Source: an uncultured Gammaproteobacteria bacterium (GTDB lineage Bacteria > Patescibacteriota > Microgenomatia > Daviesbacterales > UBA10151). Taken from it: DNA of 64,000 nt. A program made the position numbers and the translations under genes. The notes beneath the pieces were generated by a model, which was given only the letters and a program-made list of their open reading frames with translations, did not search any database and was not told the origin of the DNA. Shown piece by piece: positions 11,424-58,899 of this stretch (positions within the stretch are counted from its first letter, which is position 1; each line of letters begins with the position of its first letter). The stretch lies in the NCBI GenBank assembly GCA_964360965.1, contig CAYHYM010000001.1:8878-72877 (forward strand), given 5' to 3'.

Positions 11424-11441
11424 AAGGTAGACACATCGGGG

Positions 11442-12119: not shown

Positions 12120-12137
12120 TATTCCAGATTACGCTGT

Positions 12138-12183
12138 ACACCCCGGGGTGTCAAGCTACCACACACCCGGTGTAGATATCTAC
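12138..12183. repeat. REP-like palindromes 5' of the RAYT gene (ACACCCCGGGGTGT perfect 14-bp palindrome; ACACACCCGGTGTAGATATCTAC)
   Basis: Perfect palindrome at 12138-12151. A second ACACC/GGTGT unit follows, with a GTAGATATCTAC palindrome. Confidence 0.65.
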
Positions 12184-13287: not shown

Positions 13288-13310
13288 ATTCTTGTTTAAT
13301 TATAACATAA

Positions 13311-13874: not shown

Positions 13875-14275
13875 TATTGTTGGTTAGACTTACAAAAAGT
13901 GCCGGTAGAACTTTCAATGGTGGCGCAAACTTTGTAAGTTGCACCTGACGCACTTTCATTAGCAGCTCCACCGCTATAATCATAAGCAACATTAGTCAGG
14001 GGATCTCTGGGGATTGACTGGTTGCTAAACCATGTTGCCTGAAGTGCCGGATAATTTGGGGTAGTTTGACTGTAATGAACTTCCCAGGCTTTAGAAATGG
14101 CATCTACATCTCCTCTTCTTTGAGCATCTCTGGCATTTTTTTGAACACCAGTGAAGATGGTAATACCAATTACTGACAAAATGGCAATGATAGTAATAAC
14201 AACTAACAGCTCAACCAAAGTGAAACCAGATTTGTTTACACTAAAATTTATTGAAGTGGGCAGATACTTTTTCAC
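13874..14275 (-). CDS. type IV pilin (PilA-like paralog)
   Basis: KSGFTLVELLVVITIIAILSVIGITIFTGVQKNARDAQRRGDV. Confidence 0.75.
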   Translation of the reverse strand: MKKYLPTSINFSVNKSGFTLVELLVVITIIAILSVIGITIFTGVQKNARDAQRRGDVDAISKAWEVHYSQTTPNYPALQATWFSNQSIPRDPLTNVAYDYSGGAANESASGATYKVCATIESSTGTFCKSNQQ

Positions 14276-14309
14276 AATGATTTATCATTGCCATAATCTG
14301 GATTGATTG

Positions 14310-15164
14310 TCAAGGATTTAAGGTTAAATACCAATTCAAAATCAAATTTCCCCAAAAAAGAGCCACCAATGATCCTAAAACCAAAAACGGGCCAAAGGGC
14401 AGATTCTGTCCAAATTTCTTTTTACCCAAAATTATCAAAAATATGGCCACTGCCGCTCCTGTTAAAAATGATAAGAAAGTGGCCAAAACCGCATTGGGAA
14501 AACCCAATCCCAAACCCATAAAAGCCCCCAGCTTGACATCTCCTCCTCCCATGCCTTTACCGCGGGTAATGGTAATAAGGGCCAGGTAAAATCCTGCCAA
14601 AAAAAGTGCTGTCAATATTGAGAAAAAAAACTGCTCCAGCATTATCTGGGTATGTCTTATAAAATAAGGACTGTGAGGGGGAAGCAGCAGCCTTCCCACC
14701 AAAGATTGTGAAAGATAAAAATAAAGATAGCCAATCTTATATAAAGTAAGACTGATCAGCCATATTAGTAAAGTGACCATGGCAGGCCAAATTATCCGGT
14801 CAGGGATCAGCATTTTTTTAAAATCTGTTAAAAAAATTATGGTCAGAACTGTGATAAAGAATACTTTAAAAAAAAGCTCAAGAAGTTGAATTGGGGAGGG
14901 GAGCGAAGTCGAGGGAATGGAAGTTGAGAAAAGATAGGCTATCAAAAGACCTATCACAATCTCCATCCACAAATACTCAGTAGAAATCTTTTTATGGCAA
15001 TACCTGCATTTACCATAGAGAATTAGATAGGAAAAAATAGGAATAAGGTCATACCATCCAAGTTGATGTTTACATTTTGGACAGTACGACCTTCCCCAAA
15101 AAGACCGCTTTTGTAAACTGCGATCAGCCAAGGCTTTAACCAGACTCCCCAGAACAGCCCCCAC
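14310..15164 (-). CDS. pilD: prepilin peptidase (A24 family)
   Basis: N-terminal CPKC...CRYC zinc motif, polytopic membrane protein, GGGDVKLGAFMGLGLG catalytic region. Confidence 0.85.
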   Translation of the reverse strand: MGAVLGSLVKALADRSLQKRSFWGRSYCPKCKHQLGWYDLIPIFSYLILYGKCRYCHKKISTEYLWMEIVIGLLIAYLFSTSIPSTSLPSPIQLLELFFKVFFITVLTIIFLTDFKKMLIPDRIIWPAMVTLLIWLISLTLYKIGYLYFYLSQSLVGRLLLPPHSPYFIRHTQIMLEQFFFSILTALFLAGFYLALITITRGKGMGGGDVKLGAFMGLGLGFPNAVLATFLSFLTGAAVAIFLIILGKKKFGQNLPFGPFLVLGSLVALFWGNLILNWYLTLNP

Positions 15165-15178
15165 TATAAACCCTAAAA

Positions 15179-15727
15179 TTAGTATATACAGCTTCCTACT
15201 GATGCGGCATTGAGTGTCAATCCAGAACCCACCTCAAACTTATCAGTTTCATTACCTCCATCAGTTATCATCTTGCCGGACTGTTGAACTGATTCCAAAA
15301 CCGTATTTATTTCCCAACCAGTACCATTTGAACAGTAGGTGTAATGATAAGCTGTGGAGTTGGTAGGATCAACCGGTAAAGTTGGCACTGACACACTCTG
15401 TTGTGAAGAAAGGTCAACCTTAACCCAACCTGTTCCATTAGATGCTCTTGAACCTGTGCTTACACCACTGCAAGGGACTGTCAGATCCTTACACAAAATA
15501 GCGGCAGATGAAGACGTTGCTTCCTGAACTGCCACATTAATAGCCTGTTGCAAGTTGGCCAGATCTGTCAATCTGGCAGCATCCCGACCCCTTCTTGTTA
15601 ATTCCAAAGGATTAATAATAAGTACCACCACTGCTGCCAATATGGCAATAATGGCAATAACAACTAAAAGTTCCACCAAAGTGAAACCCTTTGATTCACT
15701 TCGTTTACTCAGGGCAGATTTACTCAA
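15179..15727 (-). CDS. type IV pilin (candidate major pilin, adjacent to pilC)
   Basis: MSKSALSKRSESKGFTLVELLVVIAIIAILAAV. The leader SESKGFTLVELL is shared with the 12658 pilin. Confidence 0.75.
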   Translation of the reverse strand: MSKSALSKRSESKGFTLVELLVVIAIIAILAAVVVLIINPLELTRRGRDAARLTDLANLQQAINVAVQEATSSSAAILCKDLTVPCSGVSTGSRASNGTGWVKVDLSSQQSVSVPTLPVDPTNSTAYHYTYCSNGTGWEINTVLESVQQSGKMITDGGNETDKFEVGSGLTLNAASVGSCIY

Positions 15728-15813: not shown

Positions 15814-17013
15814 TCAGAATGAAGTTGTCAGTTTATAAATGGGCAGGATGATGGATAAGACTAAAAAGCCTACGCCAATTCCCAAAACTATTAAGATAAT
15901 AGGTTCAATGGCCACAGTTAAATTTTTCACCAGATGGTCAGATTCTGATTCAAAATACTCTGATAATTTAAAAAAAATCTCATCCACCTTTCCTGTTTCT
16001 TCACCCACCTTAACCATCTGAGAAACAATTTTGGGGAAGATGGAAAGGGAGAGTAGTGAGGAAAATGGCATGCCCCTCTCTACCCCGGCATAGGATGATT
16101 TTAAGGCATTTCTAAAAACCTGATTTTCTGTCACCCCCCCTACAATATTGATAGCCTCAAGCAGAGGGATACCCGCTGAAACCAACAGGCCAAAAGTTCT
16201 GCTAAAGTTGGTCAGGGTGACATTGGTTATCACCTTTCCTATGATGGGAGTTTTAAGAAGCAGTCTGTCAAAGGCCAGTCCTCCGGCAGGGGTTTTCACC
16301 CATCTTTTCAAAACTGCCACAGTAATCCCCAAAATAATAATCATCAGCCACCAGAAATTAACAAACAAATCAGAGGTGGCAATCAGAATTTTGGTGGGAA
16401 GAGGCAAATCCAAAGTTGAATCACGATACAAAGATGTCAGCTTGGGAATCACAAATATCATCATGATGATGATAACCGCCATCATCATGGTAATAACCAC
16501 TATAGGATAAATTATGGCCCCCTTTACCCGGGCCCGAAATTCCCTTTCTTTTTCCAAAGAATCTGCCATCCTAAGGAATACCTCATCTAACTTTCCCGAG
16601 GCCTCGCCACTTTTGACCAGATTGACATATAGAATAGGAAAGACCTCTGTATGGCGACTCATTGCCTCTGCCAAACTCAAACCTCCTTTAATATCATGGG
16701 AAACCTCTGCTAAAACTTGCTTTAGGCCTTTGTTTTCCTGCTGTTCTTCCAAAATATCAATGGCCTCTGACAAAACCAAACCGGCAGAAATCATGGTGGC
16801 GAGCTGCCTGGTGATGGTGACCAGTTCAGAAAAACCGACCTTATTTAAAAACTTATCCAAAAGATAGACGGATTTTTTTTTAACAGTCACATCTGTCACC
16901 ACCAAACCTCTTTTTCTAAGGATCAAAGCAGCCAAACGAACATCACCGGCCTCGATTTCCCCTTTGTGTTCCTGACCATTTAAGTCTTTTGCCTTGTATA
17001 AAAAGTTAGCCAT
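15814..17013 (-). CDS. pilC: type IV pilus inner-membrane platform protein PilC
   Basis: Two GspF/PilC-type repeats, three TM segments, about 400 aa. Confidence 0.85.
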   Translation of the reverse strand: MANFLYKAKDLNGQEHKGEIEAGDVRLAALILRKRGLVVTDVTVKKKSVYLLDKFLNKVGFSELVTITRQLATMISAGLVLSEAIDILEEQQENKGLKQVLAEVSHDIKGGLSLAEAMSRHTEVFPILYVNLVKSGEASGKLDEVFLRMADSLEKEREFRARVKGAIIYPIVVITMMMAVIIIMMIFVIPKLTSLYRDSTLDLPLPTKILIATSDLFVNFWWLMIIILGITVAVLKRWVKTPAGGLAFDRLLLKTPIIGKVITNVTLTNFSRTFGLLVSAGIPLLEAINIVGGVTENQVFRNALKSSYAGVERGMPFSSLLSLSIFPKIVSQMVKVGEETGKVDEIFFKLSEYFESESDHLVKNLTVAIEPIILIVLGIGVGFLVLSIILPIYKLTTSF

Positions 17014-18067
17014 GGGACGTAAGTAATTTAGTCAAAAGCTCAGGTCTGATGGCAAATCGCAGGGCCACATCGGCTGAGATTTTACCAGCCTTAACCAAAG
17101 AGTTAAGCGATGTTTCCAGATTCATCATCCCCAGTTCGGCTGATGTTTGTATTAAATTATCAATCATATGGGTTTTTGCCTCCCTAATCATTGATCTGAC
17201 CGCAGCATTGGCAAAAAGAATCTCTTGAGCCAAAATCCTGCCCGGAGTCAAGGTTGGCACCAGCCGCAAGCATAAAATAGCCTCCAAAGTAGATGCCAGC
17301 TGCATCCTGATCTGTAGCTGCTGAGTTTGAGGAAAAACATCAATGATACGATCCACTGATTGGGCGGCAGAATTGGTATGTAAGGTGGCAAAAACCAGAT
17401 GCCCTGTTTCTGCGATGGTCATGGCAGAGGAAATGGTTTCCAAATCCCTCATCTCGCCAATTAACACCACATCCGGATCCTCTCGCAGAGCCGCGCGAAG
17501 CGCTCCAGCCCAGGACTTGGTATCATTGTACATCTCCCGCTGAGAAATTAGAGATTTGCCCTTTGGATAAACATATTCAATGGGGTCCTCAATAGTAATA
17601 ATGTGGGCAGCCCTATTTTGATTGATGGAATTTATAAAAGAGGCCAGAGCTGTTGATTTGCCATGGCCTGTTGGGCCGGTGATTAAAATAAAACCCTGGC
17701 GCAGCTCCGTCAGTTTTTCCACCACCTGAGGAAATCCCAATTCGGAGATGGCCGGAATTTTAAAAGGGATCAGGCGAAAAGATGCTGCCAGGTTTCCTTT
17801 TTGACGATAGATGTTAACCCGAAATCTGCCTTTTCCTTCAAAATCTATTGAGAAGTCAAGTTCCAGGTTTTGGGAGAAAGTTTGCTTTTGGGTCTCTGAC
17901 AAAATTGGGGTTAAAAAGCTGACCATCTCAGACGGAGCGATTACCTCTTCCCCTGGTATAGGGAAAAGCTCACCATGAACCCTTAAAATAGGAGGAAAAC
18001 CTACGGAAAGATGCAAATCTGAAGCTCCCCTGGCAATGGTTGTTTCCATTAGTTGTTGAATAGTCAT
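17006..18067 (-). CDS. pilT: twitching-motility retraction ATPase PilT
   Basis: Walker A GPTGHGKST. PilT-type HTNSAAQSVDRIIDVF. 353 aa. Confidence 0.85.
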   Translation of the reverse strand: MTIQQLMETTIARGASDLHLSVGFPPILRVHGELFPIPGEEVIAPSEMVSFLTPILSETQKQTFSQNLELDFSIDFEGKGRFRVNIYRQKGNLAASFRLIPFKIPAISELGFPQVVEKLTELRQGFILITGPTGHGKSTALASFINSINQNRAAHIITIEDPIEYVYPKGKSLISQREMYNDTKSWAGALRAALREDPDVVLIGEMRDLETISSAMTIAETGHLVFATLHTNSAAQSVDRIIDVFPQTQQLQIRMQLASTLEAILCLRLVPTLTPGRILAQEILFANAAVRSMIREAKTHMIDNLIQTSAELGMMNLETSLNSLVKAGKISADVALRFAIRPELLTKLLTSHG

Positions 18068-18075
18068 ATTTTTTC

Positions 18076-19788
18076 TTAATCCTGTGCGACTCTTAGCACC
18101 TCTTCCATGGTGGTAATTCCTTCCAAAACCTTTAAATATCCATCCTGTTTCATGGTGACCATGCCATCCTCAACACCCTGGCGTTCAATGTCTTGTGAGG
18201 AGGCATGCTCCAAAATTTTCCGGGAAATTTTTTCTGTTACCAGCAGCACTTCAAAAATACCGATTCTGCCCAGATATCCCATCTGAGCGCAATCTTGACA
18301 GCCTTGCGTTTTATAAAGTTTGATCTGACCATTTTTGGGCAGCAAGTTTCCCAAAACAGCTTTGATATTTTCCCAAACCTCAGGAGGAGCATCATATAAA
18401 ACTTTACATTTGGGACAAAGTTTTCTGACCACTCGTTGCCCCATCACTGCATTTAGGGCTGATGCCAAAAGAAACGGCTCCACCCCCATATCCAACAGCC
18501 TGGGAGCTGCGCCTGAAGAGGAATTGGTATGAACTGTGGAAAAAACCTGATGGCCGGTCAAGGCTGCCTGGATGGCCAGTTCAGCAGTTTCTGTATCTCT
18601 GATCTCACCCACCATCATTATATTGGGATCCTGACGCAAAAATGAACGCAGGGCTGAGGCAAAAGTTAAGCCTATTTGGGGATTGACCTGAACCTGATTA
18701 ACTCCGGGAATTTCATACTCAACCGGATCTTCAATGGTTAGGATATTAACTTTGGTGGTGGAAACTTTGGTCAGGATGGAGTAGAGGGTGGTGGTTTTGC
18801 CTGAACCTGTTGGTCCGCAGATTAAGATGATGCCATGAGGGCGAAGCAGCTGGGACCCTAAATTATTCAAAGACGAACCCCTCAGCCCCAGCTCCAGCAG
18901 GGTGGGGGCGCCTCCTGATTTAGGCAGTAGCCTCATCACCACTTTTTCCCCAAAAATGGTCGGCACTGTGGAGATACGTAGGTCAACTTCCTTCCCTTGA
19001 TAATCAAAAGAGAACCTGCCATCCTGCGGCAGCCTTTTTTCATCAATTTTTAAAACAGCCAGAATTTTAACCCTGGAGATCAGGGCATCATGTACCCCTT
19101 TGGGCAGAATTATTTTTTCCGACAGCACACCGTCAATTCTATAGCGGACCCGGGTTTTGTCTTCCTGTGGTTCAATATGGATGTCGGAAGCGCGGGTTTT
19201 GATGGCATATTCTAAAAGTTGATTGATGATATTGGCCACAGGCGCCTCGCGGATCACCTCAGGCGCCTCTTGAGCTTCCTCTTGCGGTTTAACCGAGGCC
19301 ACCTCTTTTAGGGCAGATGTCACCTCGGTAGTTAAACTTTGGGCATACTGGTTGGAAATGGCCTTTAAAATATCTGAAGTTAAGCCCAAAAAAGGCCTGA
19401 TCCTCATGCCTGATTTTTTCTCAATAAATTGGATCACCTGTATATCTAAAGGGTCTGCCATGGCCACCAGCAGTTGCCCATCTTTTTGGTCAAAAGCGAT
19501 CAGGATATAGCGGCGGGCCACTGCCTCAGGGATTAAATTTAGGATATTGGAAGCAATGGCCTGATCTTCCAGTAAGATATAGGGAACATTTAAAATTTGA
19601 GCTTTGGCCTGGGTTAGTTTATCAACAGGCACAAAATTATGTTCAAGAATTATTTTTTCGCTATTTTGGCCGGTGTTGATGCTTTCCAGCTTAATGGAAG
19701 AGAGTTGATCAGGAGTCAGAAGCCCCTGTTTAAATAGGATGTCCTCAATTAAAACATTATTTGATGAAGACTGGGCAGCCTGATCCAT
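18076..19788 (-). CDS. pilB: type IV pilus assembly ATPase PilB (GspE family)
   Basis: N-terminal GspII-like domain, Walker A GPTGSGKTTT, tetracysteine CPKC...CQDC. Confidence 0.85.
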   Translation of the reverse strand: MDQAAQSSSNNVLIEDILFKQGLLTPDQLSSIKLESINTGQNSEKIILEHNFVPVDKLTQAKAQILNVPYILLEDQAIASNILNLIPEAVARRYILIAFDQKDGQLLVAMADPLDIQVIQFIEKKSGMRIRPFLGLTSDILKAISNQYAQSLTTEVTSALKEVASVKPQEEAQEAPEVIREAPVANIINQLLEYAIKTRASDIHIEPQEDKTRVRYRIDGVLSEKIILPKGVHDALISRVKILAVLKIDEKRLPQDGRFSFDYQGKEVDLRISTVPTIFGEKVVMRLLPKSGGAPTLLELGLRGSSLNNLGSQLLRPHGIILICGPTGSGKTTTLYSILTKVSTTKVNILTIEDPVEYEIPGVNQVQVNPQIGLTFASALRSFLRQDPNIMMVGEIRDTETAELAIQAALTGHQVFSTVHTNSSSGAAPRLLDMGVEPFLLASALNAVMGQRVVRKLCPKCKVLYDAPPEVWENIKAVLGNLLPKNGQIKLYKTQGCQDCAQMGYLGRIGIFEVLLVTEKISRKILEHASSQDIERQGVEDGMVTMKQDGYLKVLEGITTMEEVLRVAQD

Positions 19789-27332: not shown

Positions 27333-27626
27333 CTATTTGCTGCCCAGAAACTTTTGAGCAAAATCATTTAAAAAATTTGATCCCCGGGAAATAACAAATC
27401 CTGACAAAAAAGTATCCACAAAAGGAATACTGCTTTCAATTCCCAAAATAAGGGAGAAAAAATTAATATGATAGGCAAATGCTAAAAACATCCCTGTTCC
27501 CAAACAGAAAAGGGGTAGATAGGGCTTCAAGGTAGTCACATTACCAAAAATATACTCCACGACAGCCTCATTGATGGCAGTAAATATAAAAACCGTGGCC
27601 AAGGGTGATAAATTTAATCCTTCCAA
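27333..27626 (-). CDS. small hypothetical membrane protein (3 predicted TM) downstream of the amidase
   Basis: Hydrophobic 97-aa ORF directly following the amidase gene on the same strand. Confidence 0.3.
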   Translation of the reverse strand: MEGLNLSPLATVFIFTAINEAVVEYIFGNVTTLKPYLPLFCLGTGMFLAFAYHINFFSLILGIESSIPFVDTFLSGFVISRGSNFLNDFAQKFLGSK

Positions 27627-28608: not shown

Positions 28609-29529
28609 TCAACGATTATTCCCCGAATGAAATGCCTTATGCACATCCTTTAGATGAGCATTGGTGACATGGGTGTATATTTGGGTGGTTTGGATGTTGG
28701 AGTGACCTAACATTTCCTGCACTGAGCGGATATCGGCTCCATTTATCAGTAAATCCGTGGCAAAAGAATGCCTTAAGGTATGGGGGGTGGCTTTGACAGG
28801 AAGACCTAAAGCTTTAACATATTTTTCCACAATTCGCTCAATTGAGCGGGAAGTAAGCCTCATAGCCTCACCGCTGTTTTGGGCATCTATCTTACCCTGA
28901 TACCTGATAAAAAGAGGCTTGAGGGTATCTTTTCTTGCCATCAAGTATTTTTCCAAAAACTCAACTGCAGAATCAGATAAAAAAACTATCCTTTCTTTTC
29001 CACCTTTACCAACAACTCCAAACTCGCGTCTGTTAAGATTTATGGTGTCCCTGTTTAAAGAAGCCAGTTCAGAAACCCGCAGTCCTGTTGAAAAAAGCGT
29101 CTCCAGAATGGCCCTATCCCTTATGCCATCTTTTCTAGATGTATTCGGAGCATCAAGCAGTTGCTTAAGCGAAGCATCATCCAAAATCTTCAAAGGCCTT
29201 GGTTCTGCCTCTCCCAGTTCCACTTTTTCAGGGGATAAAGTTTGGATATCTTGGCGGGCTAAATATCTTAAAAATGCCCGCAGAGCTATCATAAAATAGT
29301 TTTGGGTGACTCTTTTTAAGGATCTTTTGGTCTTTGGATCCTGAAATCTTGCCAGATACAACCTGTATTTTCTGACCAAATTCAAATCTATATCTTTGGG
29401 ATCAATATCATTCGAAAACTGCAAAAATCGTTTTAGATAATGATCGTAGTTTTTAATGGTTAACTGAGAGGCATTCCTCTCCAGCTCCAGATATTCTAAG
29501 AAATCAGTAATTAAGGCAGATAGGTTCAT
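28609..29529 (-). CDS. xerC: tyrosine site-specific recombinase XerC/XerD-like
   Basis: R..HxxR..Y catalytic region HTLRHSFATDLLINGADIRSVQEMLGHSNIQTTQIYTHV. ATG overlaps the upstream gene stop as ATGA (29527-29531). Confidence 0.8.
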   Translation of the reverse strand: MNLSALITDFLEYLELERNASQLTIKNYDHYLKRFLQFSNDIDPKDIDLNLVRKYRLYLARFQDPKTKRSLKRVTQNYFMIALRAFLRYLARQDIQTLSPEKVELGEAEPRPLKILDDASLKQLLDAPNTSRKDGIRDRAILETLFSTGLRVSELASLNRDTINLNRREFGVVGKGGKERIVFLSDSAVEFLEKYLMARKDTLKPLFIRYQGKIDAQNSGEAMRLTSRSIERIVEKYVKALGLPVKATPHTLRHSFATDLLINGADIRSVQEMLGHSNIQTTQIYTHVTNAHLKDVHKAFHSGNNR

Positions 29530-30236
29530 CACAAAAGTGCCAGGCCTAAAATTCCCAGGATGGTTAAGATTGAACCTACTATGGCCAGGGCAAAGGTAAA
29601 CTGCTCTGTTCCTGCCGGGGGAAGAGCCTTTGGCGGCCCAACATAGGGAGCAGTAGTCCCTGAGGGTGTGGCCACACCAACACCAACTCCTGCTCCGGGC
29701 GCGCCAGCAGCGCAAGTGCCAGTCCCTATAGTATAATTTCCATTAACCACTGAGTTTAACACATCAGCCACTATATCCCCCCTTTGCACCACATTAGAAT
29801 CTGAAGTTTTACTTTTATCATTGGAGTCAAAGTCAAATTTAATCTGACTGGCGCCAGTTGGAGCATCATCTTTAACTTTAAACTTAATGCTGGCCAAAGT
29901 TCCAGAACCCAAAAAACCAGTCGTGACAGAGGCCAAGCCTGAAATGGAAACTTTACCGTTGGACTCATCAATGCTATTTCCCGGGTAATCTGCATAAATT
30001 GATCCCACTGACATGGATGAAGCGCTAAACCTGGAAGTATCATATAAAACTATGGCATCAGTGCCATCAGTTTGAACCCCGCCAGTATTTAAAACAATAT
30101 CCAATGAGAAGGTACAGCTTTTATTAAAGGTACCCGAGGAAGGGGACAAAGACAGGGTGGCAGTCTGGGCAAAGGCAACCGGGCTTAATATAATTGTTAT
30201 AAAAATTATAAAAATTATAATTACTATAGTCTTCAT
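29529..30236 (-). CDS. secreted cohesin-like domain protein with C-terminal LPPAG-TM anchor-like tail
   Basis: Signal peptide. Cohesin-like beta-sandwich segment ...AIVLYDTSRF...GTLASIKFKVKDDAPTG. C-terminus KALPPAGTEQFTFALAIVGSILTILGILGLALL. Confidence 0.5.
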   Translation of the reverse strand: MKTIVIIIFIIFITIILSPVAFAQTATLSLSPSSGTFNKSCTFSLDIVLNTGGVQTDGTDAIVLYDTSRFSASSMSVGSIYADYPGNSIDESNGKVSISGLASVTTGFLGSGTLASIKFKVKDDAPTGASQIKFDFDSNDKSKTSDSNVVQRGDIVADVLNSVVNGNYTIGTGTCAAGAPGAGVGVGVATPSGTTAPYVGPPKALPPAGTEQFTFALAIVGSILTILGILGLALL

Positions 30237-30787
30237 GGCAGAATATTTATCTCCAACTGATTAACTTTTTCCAAAATATCTGCTCCAGTGCCTGTTTCAG
30301 TCACATTAGTGTCCCCGGTTTTACCTGGGGTAAAGTCCAATGAAACTTTGGTTAATCCTACAGCTTTGGCCACAAATGTTACTGCAGCAAACTGACCCTC
30401 CGGTATAACTCCGCCTTGCTGGGTGGTAATACCGGAGACAGATACTCTTCCCAAAGTCGCGTCAACCTTATTTTGCGGATAATCGGAAAAAATGGTCCCC
30501 AATACTGTTGGCTGGGCTGTTAATAGTTTTGGGTCATAGGTAATTATCAAGTCCACCCCATCAACTTTTTTGGCCGAGGCGACATTTATAGTAACCAAAA
30601 TTCTCTCCCTCACCCTAAGCTGACTTTTATCAGCGGAGAGGCTGATGGAGGTTTGACTTGTAACAGGTACGGCAACAGTTGATGGAGGAGTTGGTTTAAC
30701 CAAAGACCATCCGGCCCACAAAACTTCTGCCAAAATTACCATACCCAGCACTATAAAAATGTTTCTTTTCACCAGATATTTTTGCAT
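30233..30787 (-). CDS. secreted cohesin-like domain protein
   Basis: Signal/anchor. Cohesin-like ...VDGVDLIITYDPKLLTA...QFAAVTFVAKAVGLTKVSLDF (compare FRYDPNVLEI and VFAKIRATVKS in clostridial cohesins). Confidence 0.5.
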   Translation of the reverse strand: MQKYLVKRNIFIVLGMVILAEVLWAGWSLVKPTPPSTVAVPVTSQTSISLSADKSQLRVRERILVTINVASAKKVDGVDLIITYDPKLLTAQPTVLGTIFSDYPQNKVDATLGRVSVSGITTQQGGVIPEGQFAAVTFVAKAVGLTKVSLDFTPGKTGDTNVTETGTGADILEKVNQLEINILP

Positions 30788-30806: not shown

Positions 30807-31109
30807 TCAACTGCCGAAGTCAAGGGCGGGCAGTTGAATTAAAGTCGCACCGGGTGAGGGGGAAGGTGATGGACTAACTTGTGCTGACGGAGAAGAGGAG
30901 GGGGCTGTTTCCTTGGTAATTTTTAATTTTACATTAGAGTTGGTAGTTTCTGTGATGACCTGACCTGTATCATTCACAAATTCCACCTTGGGGATAAAGG
31001 CTGCCCGAGGCCTAAAAATTTGGGTCTGACGTACCAAATACAAAGTAGCCGGAATAGCCACCAAGATAATTACAAAGCCTATTAAAATTAATGTTTGTCT
31101 TTTAGTCAT
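30807..31109 (-). CDS. truncated 5' paralog (100 aa) of the 31143-32411 gene; leader plus Pro-Ser linker only
   Basis: First 67 aa nearly identical to the next gene. Contains a 76-nt tract 100% identical to 32215-32291. Confidence 0.4.
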   Translation of the reverse strand: MTKRQTLILIGFVIILVAIPATLYLVRQTQIFRPRAAFIPKVEFVNDTGQVITETTNSNVKLKITKETAPSSSPSAQVSPSPSPSPGATLIQLPALDFGS

Positions 31110-31142
31110 TAACTTACCCCCTTATAGATTAACCGACTCTTT

Positions 31143-32411
31143 CTACAGTGTCAACCTTTTACTTGTTCTCATCACATTATCAAAGTCTCCATGGATATCC
31201 CACCAATTTCTCAATTTTTTACCCTGATATGTTTTAGTGTTATTTTTTCCCGGCATGTTTTGCAGCATCCAAATTTGATAATTCAGTGCAGAGTTATTAT
31301 TTATCGGATCTATATCCTGACAACCCCAAATTTGACAACTAATATCTGTCAGCTGACCTAAAGTATCCGGATTCCAATCCAGACAATCAGATTTTTGGGG
31401 GGTTGGATTATTCCTGTCATATTCTGATCTGGCATTTGGTGGATTGTGCGCTGAACCGCACCTGCCATTCACCCCCAAAGTCTGCGGGAAATTTGGTCCC
31501 TGGAATTTATCTCTGTATAAACTTTTATCAACAGCATCAATTTCTGCCTCTATTTGATGTCCCCAAGACTCCAAAGCTTCTGCAGTAAACCTTTGATAAT
31601 TAAATGTGTACACACGATAAGTATTTGCACAAATTGGCATATCATTCTCTCCGCCGCTATTTGAGATATCCCCAAACGGCCCTGACATTTTTGATTCATA
31701 AATATCAAGATAGGGGTGACTGTCTGCTTTTGGCGAACCCTGATAACCCCAAAGCCATACCTCTTTTACCCCCTTACTGTCAACATAGTCGCAAATGTTG
31801 TGAGTTTGCATGATGCCCCGGTAGTCAGGGTAGGTTGGTTTATCCAACCGGGCTTTAATCGGTACTGCCTGCAGGTATTCTTTGGTATCAACGATTGTAT
31901 AACGGAGAACCGGTTTTGCATTCGGATCTTTATATCCCAAATATGTGCTGGCTTTCTCCAAAGATATTTTGAGCTGGCTGGTCACATCATCAGTTCTTTT
32001 TTTGATCAGTTCATATGAATCACCAATATCTCCTGTCACAGTAATATCAATACACTGCTGTTGGGGATTTAAGGAACAGGGAACAGAAGGAAAATATTTA
32101 ATCAGCAACACATTTATATTAAAACTTGTATCCAAGCCTGGTTGGAAAGTTGGAGAAGGGGATGGAGATGAAATTTGTGTGGGAGAAGGACTAGGAAAAG
32201 TTGTCACTGCTTCTTTGGTAATTTTTAATTTTACATTAGAGTTGGTAGTTTCTGTGATGACCTGACCTGTATCATTCACAAATTCCACCTTTGGAATAAA
32301 AGCTGCTCTGGGTTTAAAAATCTGAGTCTGCCTGACCAGATACATGGTGGCAGGAATGGAAATAAGAATAATGACGAAGCCTATGAGAATAAGTATTTGT
32401 TTTTTCGTCAC
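31143..32411 (-). CDS. secreted protein: conserved leader, Pro-Ser linker, C-terminal Cys-containing domain of unknown function
   Basis: Leader MTKKQILILIGFVIILISIPATMYLVRQTQIFKPRAA, linker SPSPTQISSPSPSPT, then a 300-aa domain with no assignable family. Confidence 0.5.
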   Translation of the reverse strand: MTKKQILILIGFVIILISIPATMYLVRQTQIFKPRAAFIPKVEFVNDTGQVITETTNSNVKLKITKEAVTTFPSPSPTQISSPSPSPTFQPGLDTSFNINVLLIKYFPSVPCSLNPQQQCIDITVTGDIGDSYELIKKRTDDVTSQLKISLEKASTYLGYKDPNAKPVLRYTIVDTKEYLQAVPIKARLDKPTYPDYRGIMQTHNICDYVDSKGVKEVWLWGYQGSPKADSHPYLDIYESKMSGPFGDISNSGGENDMPICANTYRVYTFNYQRFTAEALESWGHQIEAEIDAVDKSLYRDKFQGPNFPQTLGVNGRCGSAHNPPNARSEYDRNNPTPQKSDCLDWNPDTLGQLTDISCQIWGCQDIDPINNNSALNYQIWMLQNMPGKNNTKTYQGKKLRNWWDIHGDFDNVMRTSKRLTL

Positions 32412-32428
32412 TTTTCACTTTTCCCTTA

Positions 32429-34306
32429 TCACTTTAACAATATGCTGGCCGTTTGAGGAGGTATTGGTCCCCAAGCGCCACTTTCAAAAAACTGCACATA
32501 CGCTGACTTTAATCCTGGTCCACCTGTTAAAGTCAGATCCAAAGTGAAAACTGTTGCTGTACCCATATCACTTTGGGCTAAAACAGTGGCAAAATTAGGA
32601 TCAAAGGAAACCCTGAAAGGCAGCAGGCCTGAAGGCACAGCAGAGGCGGTGGCTGTGGGGGAGGCTGAAGAAGTTGCCACCGGCGAGGCAGATGCAGTTG
32701 CCACAGGTGATGCGGCAGGACCACCTACAGGGGGTTCTTTTGGTAGAGGGGGAGAGAACTGCTCATCAGATTGGTTGATATTCTGCCTCATACAGGCATA
32801 ATCAATGGAATTAATCCTGCCATCCCCATTAAAATCACCTGTTTTGACCACGTCTTTTACCAAACTCCACTGGCGGGTTAATTCTGCCCGATCAAAAGCA
32901 TTTATTTTTCCATCAGCCTTGATGGCTGGAGCAATATCACCAACCAGCAAAGTTACAGCCTCCAAATTCTTGGTACCGGTTTTGGTTTCAAATTCCACTT
33001 TTTTAGAGAGGGTATTGGGTGCTTTAATAACCAGGGCATACTTTTTATTTTTCTCCAGCTTTGGTGTAAAACCTGTCACTTTGCCATCTTTGTCCAGTTT
33101 GACTGTTTGTTCCAGAACCGGCTCCGGGTTTTCCGACTCGGCGCTGACCAGTACATTGGCAAAAATCTTCACTAACACATTATCCACTGCCAAATTCCCG
33201 CCAGCGCTCTTACATTGGGTTAGAGCGGCAAAGGTGACAGTGGTAGTGCCCACCGAACAGTCGGCTCTGGCAGTTTTGCTGTCATCACGGGTCAGCTCCA
33301 CATCATTTTTGCCTTCCAATTTTTTATCCAAAATAGCTGTCACCACCCCTGTTGATTCATTCCAACTCAAAACTTCCGCATCAGTTCCACCCACCTTAAC
33401 TTTGCCTTTACCTTTGGGGCCAATATTGGTACCGGTGATGGTGATGCTGGTACCGGATCCGGAAATGGCATGAGTACAGCTGGCCTCAGAAATAGCAGGA
33501 TTGGGGATAAAGTTGATCATCCGATCTCTTCTTGAAATAACACCAGTATTTGATATAAAGAGGGCATGAATAGTATTTCTGCCAGGTTTGGTTAAGGTAT
33601 GGGGTATCAGCTTGGGATGAGTATCATAAAGTTGAGCGCCTTTATCTGCGCAAGAGGTAGCAGTAATTGGCCCTTTATCAGATATAAAGAAACAGGCAGT
33701 AGAAACAGGTGGAGTTGGGGATGGTGATGGGCTAGGTGATGGACTGGGACTTGGTGAAGGTGAAGGAGACGGTGAAGGAGACGGAGCCTGGTTGACTGTC
33801 AGGGCAGAAGGGGAAACAGACAGGGTTTCCAATGATAAATCTGATTTAACATTTTTCAGCAAGGAGGTATTCAGTATATCAATGCCATACTGATTGGGGG
33901 ATTGGGATGTAAACACAAGTTCTACAAACGAGGTAGTAACTGCCGCAGGCAATGTAAAGCTGGCTGCGGTGTCCAATTCTCCAACCAGTTTAATCTGGCC
34001 GTTTAAATTGATCTGGGCCAGATTTTGGTCTCCATCGCCCTCCAATACATCAGATTTTTTGCCAACTTTGTAGGTAATGCTTTTCAGCTTAGCCTTAACT
34101 GGATCAAATTTAACATTAATTTGATACATCCTTATCTTTAAGGCGGCAGTTGAAGTAAGCTGAGCATTGACTGTGAAATCCTGCCCTGCCGGCGCTACCA
34201 AGGCAGGCGGATTAAATGAGGAAGAAACTGTCTGGCCAAATGCGGCCCTGGGCAAGCCTAGTGTAGCAAGTAACAATAAAATAATAACAGTAAATTTTCT
34301 TTTCAT
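32429..34306 (-). CDS. large secreted protein with cohesin-like modules, (SP)n linker, Ig-like region and dockerin-like repeat
   Basis: Signal peptide ending PRAAFGQ. (SP)x20 linker. Dockerin-like loop DFNGDGRINSIDYACM plus KADGKINAFDRAEL. Confidence 0.55.
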   Translation of the reverse strand: MKRKFTVIILLLLATLGLPRAAFGQTVSSSFNPPALVAPAGQDFTVNAQLTSTAALKIRMYQINVKFDPVKAKLKSITYKVGKKSDVLEGDGDQNLAQINLNGQIKLVGELDTAASFTLPAAVTTSFVELVFTSQSPNQYGIDILNTSLLKNVKSDLSLETLSVSPSALTVNQAPSPSPSPSPSPSPSPSPSPSPSPTPPVSTACFFISDKGPITATSCADKGAQLYDTHPKLIPHTLTKPGRNTIHALFISNTGVISRRDRMINFIPNPAISEASCTHAISGSGTSITITGTNIGPKGKGKVKVGGTDAEVLSWNESTGVVTAILDKKLEGKNDVELTRDDSKTARADCSVGTTTVTFAALTQCKSAGGNLAVDNVLVKIFANVLVSAESENPEPVLEQTVKLDKDGKVTGFTPKLEKNKKYALVIKAPNTLSKKVEFETKTGTKNLEAVTLLVGDIAPAIKADGKINAFDRAELTRQWSLVKDVVKTGDFNGDGRINSIDYACMRQNINQSDEQFSPPLPKEPPVGGPAASPVATASASPVATSSASPTATASAVPSGLLPFRVSFDPNFATVLAQSDMGTATVFTLDLTLTGGPGLKSAYVQFFESGAWGPIPPQTASILLK

Positions 34307-34311: not shown

Positions 34312-35238
34312 TTAACGCTTCCAGATATTCAAATCATCAGCGTCTATTTGACCGTCACCGTCAAAATCAGGGTTAACAGAGACAGGTATTTTACCTAAGT
34401 TTACCGCAGTCAGCCAGTAAAGATAATCATTTTCATCTTTCACTCCGTTACCATCAGCATCACCTAGGGTTCTTGATGGTCTGTTGCACCAGCTATTTTT
34501 ATCCTGGGTAGAGGGCACAATGTTGTAGATAGTTGCCGGAAGAGAACATTGTATCGGACCGCTTCCAGGAGGTAGTCCGTAATCTACCCCTGTCAGTTTG
34601 GTAAACTGGCAAGGAGAGGAGCAGCTGTTATCGGCTTGACACCCACATCCTGTCACAGGCGGGAGCGGAGAAGGCGAAGGAGAAACAGCAGGCCCTGTCA
34701 CCATATATCTCCCTTCAATGTTTTCTGCAGTTATTAAAGTTGTTTCCGCTCCGGAGGCCACCAGTTCAAAGGCAGGGGCAAACCTGACAGTTGATACCCC
34801 TCCTGCCCTGGCCTTAAACTTGAGCGTTCCCAAAATCAGAACTCCTGAAGAGATGGGATCTTTCGACTTTCTTACAGCAGTAAAGCGGAACTGGCCCAAG
34901 GGATCATCCACAGTATTTCTTAAAGTGTCAAAACTTGAAAGAGCAGGGTCAAATGTGACAAGCTGTAAGATATTTGTGTTGTAGGCAAGCTGTATGTTTA
35001 CTCCGGTAATATCCTGGTTTCGTGCATTCATCTTCAGCTGCACCTCAAATTCTTCTCCCGTATTTTTGCTGGATTCAGCAGGAGAGAGAGACAGTGTTAC
35101 TGCGCCAGTAGGCACCGCAGCCCTACTTCTTAGGTCCTGAATCTGCCTGACCAGATATAAAGTTACTGGTATGGCCACAATCAGAATAGCCACTACCATA
35201 AACGGTATAATTTTTATCAATTTATCTCTATCTATCAT
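34312..35238 (-). CDS. cohesin-like + Pro-Ser linker + type I dockerin protein
   Basis: Leader ...VTLYLVRQIQDLRSRAA. Cohesin-like core. C-terminal dockerin pair DADGNGVKDENDYLYWL and DFDGDGQIDADDLNIWK, with Ca-loop D/N at positions 1, 3, 5, 9, 12. Confidence 0.6.
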   Translation of the reverse strand: MIDRDKLIKIIPFMVVAILIVAIPVTLYLVRQIQDLRSRAAVPTGAVTLSLSPAESSKNTGEEFEVQLKMNARNQDITGVNIQLAYNTNILQLVTFDPALSSFDTLRNTVDDPLGQFRFTAVRKSKDPISSGVLILGTLKFKARAGGVSTVRFAPAFELVASGAETTLITAENIEGRYMVTGPAVSPSPSPLPPVTGCGCQADNSCSSPCQFTKLTGVDYGLPPGSGPIQCSLPATIYNIVPSTQDKNSWCNRPSRTLGDADGNGVKDENDYLYWLTAVNLGKIPVSVNPDFDGDGQIDADDLNIWKR

Positions 35239-36809
35239 AGGTAACCATTTTTCCAGATACTGAAATCCACGGTATTGATTGAGTCGTCGCAGTTGAAGTC
35301 TGCCTTTTTACTCTTGGTTAAGGAATGTAACTCCCTGAACCAGATGTTAAAGTCTGAAAGATCCACATCACCATCTTTGTCAGCATCACCCTGGGAGGGG
35401 ACACAAACCGCTGGTGTTGGGGAAGGGGAAGGAGAGGGAGAAGGGGAGGGGGAAACTGTAGGTTGAGGAGCTACACAAAAACCTCTATTTGGTTGATTGG
35501 CTTCACAAACAGGTTTTTGGGGGTCAACACAAAAAGAAGCATCTGTTTGACATTGACTGCCATGACATATCAGACAATCCCTAGCCTTGGAGGCTGAGAC
35601 GCATTGGGCATCAATACATTTATCTTTAAATTCCCTAAAATCAATTGACACCTTTCTTCTACATCTGTCATCCTCATCATCTTTGGTGGCTGCAAAATTA
35701 TCACAATTAGGATCTTCTGTCTGTGTTTTGGGGTTATTTCTACAAACTCCACACTGGCCAAAGTTATAGGTATTTAGGATGGGGGTAGTGGTAGTTACAC
35801 AGGCAAAACAAGATTGGCCTGAAACAGCACAAGTCAGCTGGCTGGCTGGAACCCCTTGATAAGCCGGGGTATCAGAAGATGAAAGGCAACCAATAGTACC
35901 GGCTGGTTGGCACTGATATGTCCTTTCAGCTCCAAAAAGATTGCCTGCGGATACTCCCACAGGACAAGTGGGAACACCTAGGGCCCCACCGGGTAGGGTG
36001 GTAAAAACAATCAGACTAAGGTTACACTGCCCACCAAATTCCTGACTTTTATCATTAAACATTCTCCACCTGAAGGGATATGTCCCAGCAGTTGTGGGCC
36101 CAATTGTGACATTAAAGTCCTTTTGATTGCCTGGTTCAATTGTGCTACCTACACTAATATTGGTTTTATCTGGCTTGAATGCCAACTCAGCACCTGAACC
36201 ACCAGTGAATCTTAAGGAATAATTTGATTGCCAGTTGTTAGTAACACCCCCAGTAGGGTCTTGAGTATTTCTTAAAATCATGGTGATGTTATAAGATTTG
36301 TTAATCACAACAATACCAGGGTGTTTATCATAAGGTTGGCCATCAATGGTGACGTCTGTACAGTCTGCCCTGTCTGCACCACCCACACCTACATTGCCAG
36401 ATGAAGGTGAAGGTGGAGGTGGTGGTGGTGAGGCTGCAGCGGGACACTGCTTTGGTTCTGTACAACTGGAAGCATCACACTGCGGTTGATCACCTGGATC
36501 ATTAGGATCGGCCACACCGTCACTATTGATGTCCAGGGTGTTATCCGTATAAGTGGCAAAAGCCGTTAGATAACAACCGTTGGCATCTACAGATCCACAA
36601 CTACCAACCGGCTGACCAACTTGTGGCTGGTTTGGCCTATTACACGGGAAAAGACCATCTGGGGCAGGACTCATAATCTCTGCTGCCTTTGATTTAAGTT
36701 GAGTTTGTTGTTGGACCAGTCTTACTCCCACCAGAAGCCCCACAGCCAAAACCCCCAAAATCAACAGGGCAATGATATTTCTTTTAGATAATAATTTTGT
36801 TGCTTCCAT
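35235..36809 (-). CDS. Cys-rich secreted protein with Pro-Ser linker and C-terminal dockerin
   Basis: Leader ...VRLVQQQTQLKSKAA. PPPPPPSPSS and PSPSPSPSPSPTP linkers. Dockerin pair DADKDGDVDLSDFNIWF and DFNCDDSINTVDFSIWK. Confidence 0.55.
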   Translation of the reverse strand: MEATKLLSKRNIIALLILGVLAVGLLVGVRLVQQQTQLKSKAAEIMSPAPDGLFPCNRPNQPQVGQPVGSCGSVDANGCYLTAFATYTDNTLDINSDGVADPNDPGDQPQCDASSCTEPKQCPAAASPPPPPPSPSSGNVGVGGADRADCTDVTIDGQPYDKHPGIVVINKSYNITMILRNTQDPTGGVTNNWQSNYSLRFTGGSGAELAFKPDKTNISVGSTIEPGNQKDFNVTIGPTTAGTYPFRWRMFNDKSQEFGGQCNLSLIVFTTLPGGALGVPTCPVGVSAGNLFGAERTYQCQPAGTIGCLSSSDTPAYQGVPASQLTCAVSGQSCFACVTTTTPILNTYNFGQCGVCRNNPKTQTEDPNCDNFAATKDDEDDRCRRKVSIDFREFKDKCIDAQCVSASKARDCLICHGSQCQTDASFCVDPQKPVCEANQPNRGFCVAPQPTVSPSPSPSPSPSPTPAVCVPSQGDADKDGDVDLSDFNIWFRELHSLTKSKKADFNCDDSINTVDFSIWKNGYL

Positions 36810-36812
36810 ATT

Positions 36813-37211
36813 TTATATTCCAGGTGATGGTGATGGACTAGGTGATGGACTGGGACTTGGTGAAGGTGAAGGGCTTGGACTGGGGCTGGGAGACAGTGAT
36901 GGAGAGGGGGATGGGGATGGTGGGAGTGGCAAATTAATTCCTTCCTCAGATTTTAAGAAAGGTGAATCCAACACCACATTTATTTCAGAATCTGTAGATG
37001 TACATTCACCAACAGCCGGACAATTAACACCTGATTTTCCTTCTATTGCTCTAAAGGAGATCGGATCACCACCGGCTGCTTTGGATTTTAATTGCTGTTG
37101 GGTTTGGACCAGTTTAATCCCCAAAGGAATGGCCACAATCATAATGGCCAAAATCAAAAATGAAATGATGTTCTTCCTGGAAAAAAGACTGTTGTCTGAA
37201 GAATAATCCAT
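36813..37211 (-). CDS. short leader + (PS)n-only protein (possible truncated paralog)
   Basis: Leader ...GIKLVQTQQQLKSKAA, then (SP)x18 to the stop. The plus-strand ORF 36772-37206 is its antisense image. Confidence 0.4.
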   Translation of the reverse strand: MDYSSDNSLFSRKNIISFLILAIMIVAIPLGIKLVQTQQQLKSKAAGGDPISFRAIEGKSGVNCPAVGECTSTDSEINVVLDSPFLKSEEGINLPLPPSPSPSPSLSPSPSPSPSPSPSPSPSPSPSPSPGI

Positions 37212-37244: not shown

Positions 37245-38720
37245 TCAATCTGTTTTTAACTTGGTCAAATCTACAATCACAAAATCATGGGTCTGATGGA
37301 TAATCTTATATTTTTCCATGACTTGCTTTGTCTGATCATCAAGAGCCACAGACACATAATGGGTGGCCCCCAGCTTAATCAGCTCGGTCACACTCAGGTA
37401 AACAGAAGACCAGCCAGGTCGATCCAGCTGGTATAAAAAAGCGGTATTTCTCTCAAATGGAGCAATCACCCTGGCTTCTTTGGGTAAAATTTCTCTGGCC
37501 ACATCTCCAGCTTTCATAATCTCACCATGATTAATCTGATAAAAACCCCTCACCTGATACCAGCCAAAAGCAAAGGTTAGAGCAATCAAAGCTAAGGTAG
37601 CAGGAATGGTGATCCAGGCAGTCAACCATCTGCCGGAGGCAAAAATTAGAAAATCTACTGAGCGGGCCATAAACACAGCCAAAATCGGCACCAGGGGAAT
37701 CTGATAATAATCATGTTCCACATTGCCGCGAGCCAAAATCAGCACATATAAACTTAAACCCAGCAGCCACCAGTGGAAAAACCAGGTTTGACCTTGTTTC
37801 GGCTTCAAAAATACTCCCAGGGTAGCCAGGAAAAAACCAGCCACAGTTAAAATTTCCCTGCCCAGTCTTTCTGCAATAATCCAATGTAAGAAAGCTCCTT
37901 TGTAGCGGATGTTGTCACCATTAAAAAGCCAGGCGGCAGAAGGGATGCCTTCAGGATATTGCAGCATCCATAAACGCCATGATAACAGAGGTACAGTGGT
38001 CAAAGCAACCAGCAGATACAGCTTAAGGTTAGTCAGGGCCCGCAATCCCCGGTAATGGAAAGATAAATATGCCATCGGCATCAATAGATAAAGCGTGTAT
38101 GGTTTGGTGAGAATGGCCACATTCAAAAACAACACAGTCAAAACAAAAAAAAACCAGGTTTCTTTTTCCAAAAACCTGATAAAAAAATAAAGGGCTGACA
38201 AAGAGGCAAAGATCATCATCGGCTCCGGCATAAACACTCTGGAGAAATAAATATTATACGGTAAAAAGGCCAAAAAGAGAGCTGAGATAAGAGCAACCCT
38301 GATCCCTAAAAATTTTTTGACCAGAAGATAAAGGAGAATAATTGACAAAAGTGAGAAAACAACTGACATTTGCCGGCCATAGATTACCTCCACCTGTCCC
38401 ATGATCAGATATACCACTGCCACCAGACCGCTATAGATGGGAAATTCCACAAAGCGGAAACGCTGCGGGTTGGGACGGGAATCGTGGGTAACAGGAGCCA
38501 TGTCATCATATTTAGGATGCAAAAAATCAAAGCCTTCTTTGATAAAATTTCTGGACACAGCTGCCGTGTCAACCTGCCTCCAGGAATGCCAGTCACCCAG
38601 GGGAATGTTGATCCGGTACTGGCGGATCCAAAAGGCCCCAATTAAAATGATTATCAAAAAGAGCAGGGGACTGGAAAAAACCTTTTTAAGTACCATAAAG
38701 CCATTATAGCAGCAAGACAA
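37245..38720 (-). CDS. GT-C fold glycosyltransferase (PMT_2 / ArnT-like, family 39/83-type), polytopic
   Basis: About 12 TM helices. First extracytoplasmic loop carries acidic YDD...PQRFRFVEFPIYSG. Topology and size typical of protein O-mannosyl/ArnT-like transferases. Confidence 0.55.
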   Translation of the reverse strand: MSCCYNGFMVLKKVFSSPLLFLIIILIGAFWIRQYRINIPLGDWHSWRQVDTAAVSRNFIKEGFDFLHPKYDDMAPVTHDSRPNPQRFRFVEFPIYSGLVAVVYLIMGQVEVIYGRQMSVVFSLLSIILLYLLVKKFLGIRVALISALFLAFLPYNIYFSRVFMPEPMMIFASLSALYFFIRFLEKETWFFFVLTVLFLNVAILTKPYTLYLLMPMAYLSFHYRGLRALTNLKLYLLVALTTVPLLSWRLWMLQYPEGIPSAAWLFNGDNIRYKGAFLHWIIAERLGREILTVAGFFLATLGVFLKPKQGQTWFFHWWLLGLSLYVLILARGNVEHDYYQIPLVPILAVFMARSVDFLIFASGRWLTAWITIPATLALIALTFAFGWYQVRGFYQINHGEIMKAGDVAREILPKEARVIAPFERNTAFLYQLDRPGWSSVYLSVTELIKLGATHYVSVALDDQTKQVMEKYKIIHQTHDFVIVDLTKLKTD

Positions 38721-41179: not shown

Positions 41180-41848
41180 TTATTCCAAAATAAGATGTTC
41201 AATCAGTTTTAATTTTCTTTGATAGTCAGCTTGATCAAATACAAAATGTTTATATTTTTCCCTGCTTCCAAACATATCCAACACTAAATTTGGTTCTAAA
41301 AAACCATCATTACCAGTAAGATAATTTGAAAAGGATGACCACGGATACTTTTCTAATTCACCAACAGTTCTAACTATAAAATTTGTATAAGGATTTAGGT
41401 GTATATATCTTGAAACATGAATAAACTGTTCATCAGTCTCTATCCTCTTGGCTTTAAATTGATCTAAAAATAAGGAGCCGTCCCGTTCATTCCTGGTATT
41501 ATGATAACGAGTATAACTATTTTGGAAATTACCTATAAATTTTGAAATACCATCCTCCATTTTCTGCTTTAACAAGAAATGAAAATGATTGGGCATTAAA
41601 CAAAAACAAATAATATCAACTAATTTTTCTGCCTGGTTCGTAATTTTGGTAATCTCTTTTTGTTTATCTTGTTCCAACTCCAAAAATTTAGATAATCTAA
41701 TAGGTGGGCTTGAAACTCTATAAAATTCAATTGCCAAAATTGCCCTTTGGTATTCTTTTTTTGTGGTAAAGGTGGGTTGCTTATTTATACCTCTGTTGTA
41801 AACATGGTAGATCTCATCCGTTACAAGTGGAATTTTTCTACCTGGCAT
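41180..41848 (-). CDS. REP-associated tyrosine transposase (RAYT) paralog
   Basis: HuH motif LMPNHFHFLLK. Tyr region SRYIHLNPYTNFIV...YPWSSFSNY. About 50% identical to the 11442 copy. Confidence 0.8.
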   Translation of the reverse strand: MPGRKIPLVTDEIYHVYNRGINKQPTFTTKKEYQRAILAIEFYRVSSPPIRLSKFLELEQDKQKEITKITNQAEKLVDIICFCLMPNHFHFLLKQKMEDGISKFIGNFQNSYTRYHNTRNERDGSLFLDQFKAKRIETDEQFIHVSRYIHLNPYTNFIVRTVGELEKYPWSSFSNYLTGNDGFLEPNLVLDMFGSREKYKHFVFDQADYQRKLKLIEHLILE

Positions 41849-58890: not shown

Positions 58891-58899
58891 TATTCACAA

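Follow-up and report, generated by a model that had tools for sequence, protein, structure and literature searches.

How do two adjacent genes whose homologous 5′ ends differ at many positions come to share a run of 77 nucleotides (nt) without a single difference? This question is raised by a 64-kb stretch of DNA (64,000 nt of contig CAYHYM010000001.1, hereafter the window) from an uncultivated groundwater bacterium with a small genome, probably a member of the Patescibacteria (the Candidate Phyla Radiation, CPR) and probably Microgenomates-like. The two genes, which we call S (100 amino acids, aa) and L (422 aa), lie in tandem on the minus strand, and both copies of the shared tract are found in their 5′ coding ends. 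We argue that the tract arose by ectopic gene conversion between S and L, which are ancient paralogs, and we hold this reading at a probability of roughly 80%. Coordinates of the features discussed are collected in Table 1.

An identical tract within divergent 5′ ends

S and L share an N-terminal unit of 66 codons, in which a signal anchor is followed by a small beta-hairpin and then by a Pro-Ser linker. The N-terminus of S reads MTK(R/K)Q..LILIGFVIIL..IPAT.YLVRQTQIF.PRAAFIPKVEFVNDTGQVITETTNSNVKLKITKE and continues into the Pro-Ser linker and a short tail; L has an opening and a linker like those of S and continues into a domain of about 330 aa. When we compared the two regions with each other, we found an exact identity of 77 nt between direct repeats at an offset of 1302 (30913-30989 and 32215-32291). 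An earlier note on this DNA had described a tract of 76 nt here; the tract is real, but it is 77 nt long and the first interval had been given one base short. The tract codons (41-66) cover the hairpin, and the product of the tract in S is KVEFVNDTGQVITETTNSNVKLKITK. In a whole-window repeat scan, the tract is the longest exact repeat of the 64 kb. Even when 3 mismatches are allowed, the window contains no third copy, and with the same tolerance 100 dinucleotide-preserving shuffles of the window yielded no copy of the tract at all.

The tract lies within a 204-nt block that aligns between S and L without gaps and is 82% identical overall. Outside the tract, we counted 36 differences in 127 nt, or about 72% identity, close to the 70% that the earlier note had given for the 5′ coding regions of the two genes. 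When the 36 differences were permuted over the 204 sites, an identical run of at least 77 nt arose in 0 of 200,000 permutations and the longest run was 68 nt. The 77-nt identity exceeds the expectation from the surrounding S/L divergence. At the protein level, S and L are identical over residues 34-67. The two edges of the tract are of different kinds. The 3′ edge is at most 8 nt from the end of S-L homology, at the linker, so this sharp boundary is found where the homology itself stops. Homology continues on both sides of the 5′ edge, which is a genuine conversion endpoint.

Related genomes indicate gene conversion

Upstream of the tract, 33 of 114 nt differ between S and L, with a proportion of synonymous differences (pS) of 0.81, which is saturated, and a nonsynonymous divergence (dN) of 0.13. 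In the tract codons, pS is 0.06. With synonymous sites saturated in the flank, S and L are ancient paralogs outside the tract. The closest ortholog of L, at 81% amino-acid identity, is found at locus L001. L and L001 differ at 15 of 120 and 11 of 90 positions in the two flanks (26/210, 12%) and at 18 of 77 positions (23%) within the tract, a tract-versus-flank difference with a Fisher p of 0.026. L and S, in contrast, show 29% divergence in the flank and 0% in the tract, and S and L001 show approximately 28% in the 5′ flank and 23% in the tract. This mismatch between tract and flank in the comparison of L with L001 points to gene conversion. The 114-nt upstream part separates L-type from S-type sequences: the L genes of the window, L001 and L006 have 12-17 differences from one another (15-17 for window L against the other two), as compared to about 30-35 between S-type and L-type sequences. 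The gene-conversion signature that the earlier note had seen is thus borne out, with L001 following L in the flanks and not in the tract.

Among relatives, 49 of the 77 tract sites vary, mostly synonymously, and in the S-L pairs of other genomes the pS of the tract region is 0.46-0.78; the tract is therefore without constraint at the nucleotide level. Five related genomes with tandem genes that carry the unit (L003, L006, L008, L012 and L013) have no S-L conversion tract, and their longest exact runs are 8-24 nt. The conversion is therefore specific to the lineage of the window and younger than the split from L001. The exact 77-mer had no match in the GTDB representative genomes, and a metagenome scan returned it from one contig, L009. 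RuvC is encoded in the window, indicating that recombination machinery is present.

Both copies are recovered with their own flanks

According to the paper on the Hainich dataset (PMC8672522), the filter replicates were assembled one by one with metaSPAdes. Contig L009 (well H51, replicate R1, 0.1-µm fraction) is 100% identical to window positions 30935-33227; copy 2 lies in it between its two L-specific flanks, and the contig breaks off 55 nt into copy 1. Contig L011 (well H51, replicate R2) corresponds to window positions 32241-26002; it carries copy 1 with both S-specific flanks and starts inside copy 2. L011 has four mismatches to the window, all in its first 53 nt. One of them makes a stop codon and 0 of 4 match the S copy, and we read them as contig-tip errors. 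We found no variant junction in the contigs of the three assemblies, all from the same well, and the contigs agree wherever they overlap. Both copies are real in the DNA and are not an assembly product.

It is very improbable that the identity was created by an assembler that collapsed or mis-threaded a repeat. The source is a metagenome assembly and both L009 and L011 break inside the repeat; however, breaks are expected at a genuine repeat, and separate replicate assemblies recover each copy with its own flanks at 100% identity, barring the mismatches at the tip of L011. The default maximum k of metaSPAdes is 55. The 77-nt repeat is shorter than two k-mers of this length, so real k-mers link every position of the tract to a flank specific to its copy.

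Direction and proposed mechanism

Between S and its closest ortholog, L006_S, there are 16 differences in the 77 nt of the tract and 23 in the 114 nt of the flank, with no excess in the tract. The first tract codon (PKV) encodes Val in 5 of the 6 S-type sequences compared, and Ile or Leu in L types outside the window. On distance alone, the tract has 16 differences to L006_S and 18 to L001_L, which favors neither direction. Transfer from S to L is favored because the tract of L is over-diverged from L001, the tract of S is not over-diverged from L006_S, and the Val codon is S-like. We consider S to L the somewhat likelier direction on these sequence comparisons.

The unit copies of S and L are old paralogs kept similar by selection at the protein level. 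In the mechanism that we propose, a short, non-reciprocal recombination would have copied 77-79 nt (codons 41-66, the hairpin) from one unit copy to the other, with S the likelier donor and L the recipient. Given direct repeats at a distance of 1.3 kb, the transfer could have proceeded by RecA-mediated recombination or by template switching during replication. We infer this molecular route, as we do the direction and any functional consequence of the conversion.

Gene S belongs to a conserved small-protein family

Searching for homologs of S, we found 14 close ones, which range from 84 to 101 aa in length. The S ATG is preceded by an AAGGGGG Shine-Dalgarno sequence, and the ratio of nonsynonymous to synonymous divergence (dN/dS) between S and its orthologs is about 0.1. 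In L002-L005, L008, L011 and L013, we found that S is followed by the cohesin genes in the same order as in the window, and in L005 and L007, S is present and an L-like gene is absent. The relatives share one gene order with the window: the short gene comes after a variable gene and is followed by cohesin genes of about 190 and then about 240 aa, by a tyrosine recombinase and by an amidase. S is thus a member of a conserved small-protein family under purifying selection. The earlier note had taken the 100-aa gene for a 5′ duplicate fragment, which is wrong given the conserved length of the family, its fixed synteny, its own Shine-Dalgarno sequence, the low dN/dS and its occurrence without L.

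After the Pro-Ser linker, S proteins end in GPIVLLQR or in G(I/V)S(I/T) (P0122-P0134; window 30807-30850). A 990-aa protein of L010 (L010:7231-10203) also ends in ...SPSPSGVSI, and the tail SGPIVLLQR resembles the start of a CBM_4_9-type cargo, SGPANLLLNGGFEN, in L012 (L012:1748-2488). S may have descended from a truncated gene of unit plus CBM cargo, or the S tails may be a C-terminal motif.

The unit is found alone and fused to variable cargo

To our scans against Pfam and NCBIfam, S, L and the 132-aa protein encoded upstream in the same cluster gave no family match. The AlphaFold2 model of L has a mean predicted local distance difference test score (pLDDT) of 87.7. In this model, residues 3-30 form a helix, strands at 40-45 and 61-66 form the hairpin at lower confidence, residues 66-88 are disordered, and the domain at about 90-422 is modeled confidently. 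In the cargo family of L, the residues G284-H285-Q286-x-E288-x-E290 of a long helix are invariant (within L residues 279-326), as are C318-G319-x-x-H322-N323-x-P325-N326. The invariant residues, together with a weak metzincin-like fold, suggest a non-canonical metal site of an HxxE...H type that replaces HExxH.

In an exhaustive profile search, the N-terminal unit heads at least 292 representative clusters at E ≤0.001, with lengths from 67 to 1294 aa, and among the best 150 about a quarter of the unit-bearing clusters are at most 115 aa long. In the gene just upstream of S, or in the gene at the position of S, the unit is fused to a cargo that differs by genome (Table 1). This pattern implies a variable slot, in which the cargo would have been replaced by recombination downstream of a conserved L-type leader. 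Cargo-less short genes, with a leader, a small unit and a Pro-Ser or Pro-Gly tail, are found twice in the window (30807-31109 and 36813-37211) and as two tandem genes in L010 (3872-4439), and their lengths are conserved. A profile search of GTDB genomes for the short-gene family returned one distant locus, L010. L010 (CAYNFQ010000007.1) is labeled uncultured Gammaproteobacteria and has the same operon type, with leader-unit, cohesin and dockerin genes and Pro-Ser linkers; it is probably mis-binned or mislabeled.

A tentative reading, which we regard as doubtful, is that neither S nor the 132-aa gene is a product of decay and that both of these cargo-less short genes function in a modular system of surface display. 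The unit would then be common to a bare subunit and to subunits whose cargo can be exchanged (a metzincin-like hydrolase, a BNR propeller, CBM_4_9 or unknown domains), and recombination in the unit or linker would swap cargo over evolutionary time and, as with the tract described here, keep co-assembling hairpins matched.

Alternative explanations for the shared tract

Some points weigh against conversion between S and L. Evolution among L orthologs is uneven, since L001 and L006 have 12 differences in the 114 nt of the 5′ part and 26 in the 77 nt of the tract. The comparison draws on one L ortholog (L001) and one close S ortholog (L006) from different genomes, and the direction is weakly supported. 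The identity rests on assembled contigs and not on reads; judging by the break of each contig at the repeat, L009 and L011 would be independent of the assembly behind the window, and one well is the source of both. Finally, 64 kb of the genome were examined, and a third donor copy may lie elsewhere. This last point leads to a mosaic origin, in which both S and L were overwritten by DNA from another strain or by a further, unseen copy of the unit, or in which L recently acquired its unit by duplication from S and then had the 5′ part of this unit replaced. The size of the unit family (the 292 clusters above) and the mosaic divergence of L-type leaders among relatives speak for such an origin; however, it requires two events where one suffices. 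L001 is homologous to L without interruption from the leader through the tract region and the linker into the cargo (81% over 1544 nt), indicating that L was whole before the conversion, and we consider a mosaic origin unlikely. It is hardly credible that the 77 nt are kept identical by selection on the nucleotide sequence itself, for instance on an RNA structure or on a protein-binding site that both genes contain. The mRNA-sense tract does form a hairpin with a z of –2.08 against shuffles, but 7 of 200 shuffles fold equally well, the stem bases are not retained in L001, and the variation of the tract among relatives is, as described above, mostly synonymous. Rfam gave no match in the tract and two chance-level matches elsewhere. 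With a hairpin that is weak and not conserved, we rejected the RNA explanation.

The earlier note had also read the locus as ongoing, cassette-style variation. In such a system, S and the 132-aa gene would be donors that are repeatedly recombined into expressed surface-protein genes and so vary the cell surface. Several features resemble such a system: twice in the cluster a short cargo-less gene lies beside a longer gene with the same leader, the direction hint runs from S to L, the slot upstream of S holds varied cargo behind a conserved L-type leader in relatives, and two separate high-identity tracts lie within 6 kb. However, the window has only two copies of the unit. With a start codon and a Shine-Dalgarno sequence of its own and with purifying selection acting on it, S is not a silent cassette, and the conversion homogenized S and L instead of diversifying them. 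The three assemblies, which agree where they overlap and hold no variant junction, and the five related genomes without such tracts likewise do not support the claim, and we judge programmed variation quite improbable. A silent-cassette system has several promoterless, untranslatable donors and one expression site; in the 64-kb window we found two copies, and S is translatable. Using Pfam, we found no reverse transcriptase or invertase system among the open reading frames (ORFs) scanned, namely those of 150 aa or more at 15.8-50.1 kb together with 27333-27626. A diversity-generating retroelement was rejected, as the reverse-transcriptase domain is absent from the scanned ORFs and the repeats are 100% identical, including the adenines. 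Site-specific inversion, or a shufflon, was also rejected, because the repeats are direct and the window has no inverted repeats of at least 30 nt. A tyrosine recombinase follows the two cohesin genes in those relatives whose contigs reach that far, and this adjacent gene fits a housekeeping Xer-type enzyme. Taken together, the event is ordinary gene conversion by a known mechanism and not a programmed variation system.

Operon context and a second tract

S and L are part of a minus-strand cluster at 29.5-37.2 kb that encodes Cohesin, Dockerin_1 and TIG proteins with Pro-Ser linkers and has leaders of the form [TM]-LVxQxQxL(K/R)S(K/R)AA throughout. The cluster is flanked by chromosomal housekeeping genes, including gyrB, gyrA, an amidase, an Xer-like tyrosine recombinase, RuvC and type IV pilus genes. 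A literature search for cohesins and dockerins in CPR bacteria found nothing specific to this operon type.

Within the cluster, a second tract is shared by two (Ser-Pro)n-coding segments, at 48 of 50 nt and an offset of 3106, with an exact core of 35 nt (33732-33766 and 36838-36872). When synonymous codons were shuffled among all Pro-Ser linkers of the cluster, the longest shared run had a mean of 15.4 nt and a maximum of 27 nt, and a run of 35 nt was reached in 0 of 2000 trials. The flanks of the two copies are unrelated to each other, and the 35-nt core is in none of the fetched relatives. The earlier note had reported this tract as well; it is real and exceeds the codon-shuffle null, but its second coordinate had been off by one. 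The second tract is another recent transfer between linkers of low complexity, through conversion or template switching; it is independent of the event in S and L but of the same general kind.

Table 1. Positions of the shared tracts, the genes that carry them and related cargo domains. Positions refer to the window unless a locus is named.
Feature	Position	Strand	Description
Gene S, 100 aa	30807..31109	-	Signal anchor, small beta-hairpin unit, Pro-Ser linker, short tail; cargo domain absent
Gene L, 422 aa	31143..32411	-	N-terminal unit as in S, Pro-Ser linker, ~330-aa globular cargo domain with weak metzincin-like fold
First tract, copy 1	30913..30989	-	nt 121-197, codons 41-66 of S; exact 77-nt match to 32215-32291
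First tract, copy 2	32215..32291	-	nt 121-197, codons 41-66 of L
S N-terminal homologous block, 204 nt	30905..31108	-	Paralogous partner 32207-32410
L N-terminal homologous block, 204 nt	32207..32410	-	Partner 30905-31108
Second tract, copy 1	33717..33766	-	(Ser-Pro)n interdomain linker of 625-aa cohesin/TIG/dockerin protein (32429-34306)
Second tract, copy 2	36823..36872	-	C-terminal (Ser-Pro)n tail of 132-aa short gene (36813-37211)
Two cohesin-domain membrane-anchored proteins	29529..30787	-	184 aa (30233-30787) and 235 aa (29529-30236), directly downstream of S; Pfam Cohesin E 3e-7 and 1e-7
Upstream operon members	34312..37211	-	132-aa leader-only gene, 524-aa dockerin protein, 308-aa cohesin/dockerin-like protein; [TM]-LVxQxQxL(K/R)S(K/R)AA leaders, Pro-Ser linkers
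Cargo: L-type domain	Window (31143-32411), L001		
Cargo: unrelated ~200-aa domain	L003:3025-3849, L006:22-858		
Cargo: BNR_4-like domain	L008:3083-4528		
Cargo: CBM_4_9	L013:2824-4807		
Cargo: reads like CBM_4_9	L012:388-2488		Putative assignment

Further observations concern the cluster and its surroundings. At 36807-36815, a single codon separates the stop of the 132-aa gene from the in-frame ATG of the 524-aa gene, and the leaders of the two genes are 55% identical over 38 aa. Directly upstream of the Pro-Ser-linker operon, at 37245-38720, is a membrane glycosyltransferase of the PMT_2 family (protein O-mannosyltransferase-like), a candidate O-glycosylator of the Pro-Ser linkers. An IS200-like Y1 transposase ORF (41180-41848) adjoins RuvC, and a Y1_Tnp gene is found near the syntenic operon of L002 (L002:7773-8417). 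Seven paralogous type IV pilin-like genes at 10248-15688, whose GFTLVELLVV-coding segment has 61-82% nucleotide identity without long identical tracts, adjoin homologs of PilC, PilT and PilB at 15814-19788. Short direct repeats at 58886-58958 and 60711-60840 (40 nt at 93% and 41 nt at 83%) lie just downstream of the ORFs 57688-58890 and 59747-60715, and may be a shared 3′ element or terminator. A promoter and terminator scan gave counts near the shuffle expectation.

Comparison with known systems

These data document a recent gene conversion in an uncultivated, small-genome groundwater bacterium, reproducible across assemblies, and they indicate that homologous recombination acts on the surface-protein genes of this organism. 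The unit, alone or fused to cargo in a conserved cohesin/dockerin operon, also provides an annotation handle for many proteins now called hypothetical, probably in CPR lineages.

The closest parallels are found in systems where sequence is transferred between related genes. In Helicobacter pylori, babA/babB and sabA/sabB likewise have similar 5′ ends and different bodies, undergo short, non-reciprocal transfer with both loci persisting, and encode surface or secreted proteins. In contrast, the event here is a single one of 77 nt in a signal-proximal hairpin, the genes involved are tandem neighbors 1.3 kb apart, and we found no evidence of phenotype switching or recurrence. The tufA/tufB genes of Salmonella share with S and L a homogenizing conversion of the RecA type and tracts of identity that conflict with flank divergence. 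However, the tuf genes are homogenized over their full length and repeatedly, whereas the flanks of S and L are saturated at synonymous sites and the relatives lack homogenization. The truncated-looking gene beside a full-length gene, with a likely short-to-long direction, recalls pilE/pilS of Neisseria, vlsE of Borrelia and msp2 of Anaplasma. The locus described here, by comparison, has no silent-cassette array; its short gene can be translated and is conserved, differences are removed, and the assembled contigs show no heterogeneity.

With regard to architecture, the cluster resembles cellulosome-type proteins in its Cohesin, Dockerin_1 and TIG domains and Pro-Ser linkers, and the cargo of its relatives (BNR_4 and CBM_4_9) is enzyme-like or carbohydrate-binding. 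To our knowledge, a shared leader-hairpin unit together with cargo-less short genes is not a described feature of cellulosomes. The modular arrangement of leader, hairpin and linker with conserved cargo-less short genes is, together with the organism, mildly new in a descriptive sense, and it differs from cellulosomes in that the proteins are small, membrane-anchored and encoded by a bacterium that probably belongs to the CPR.

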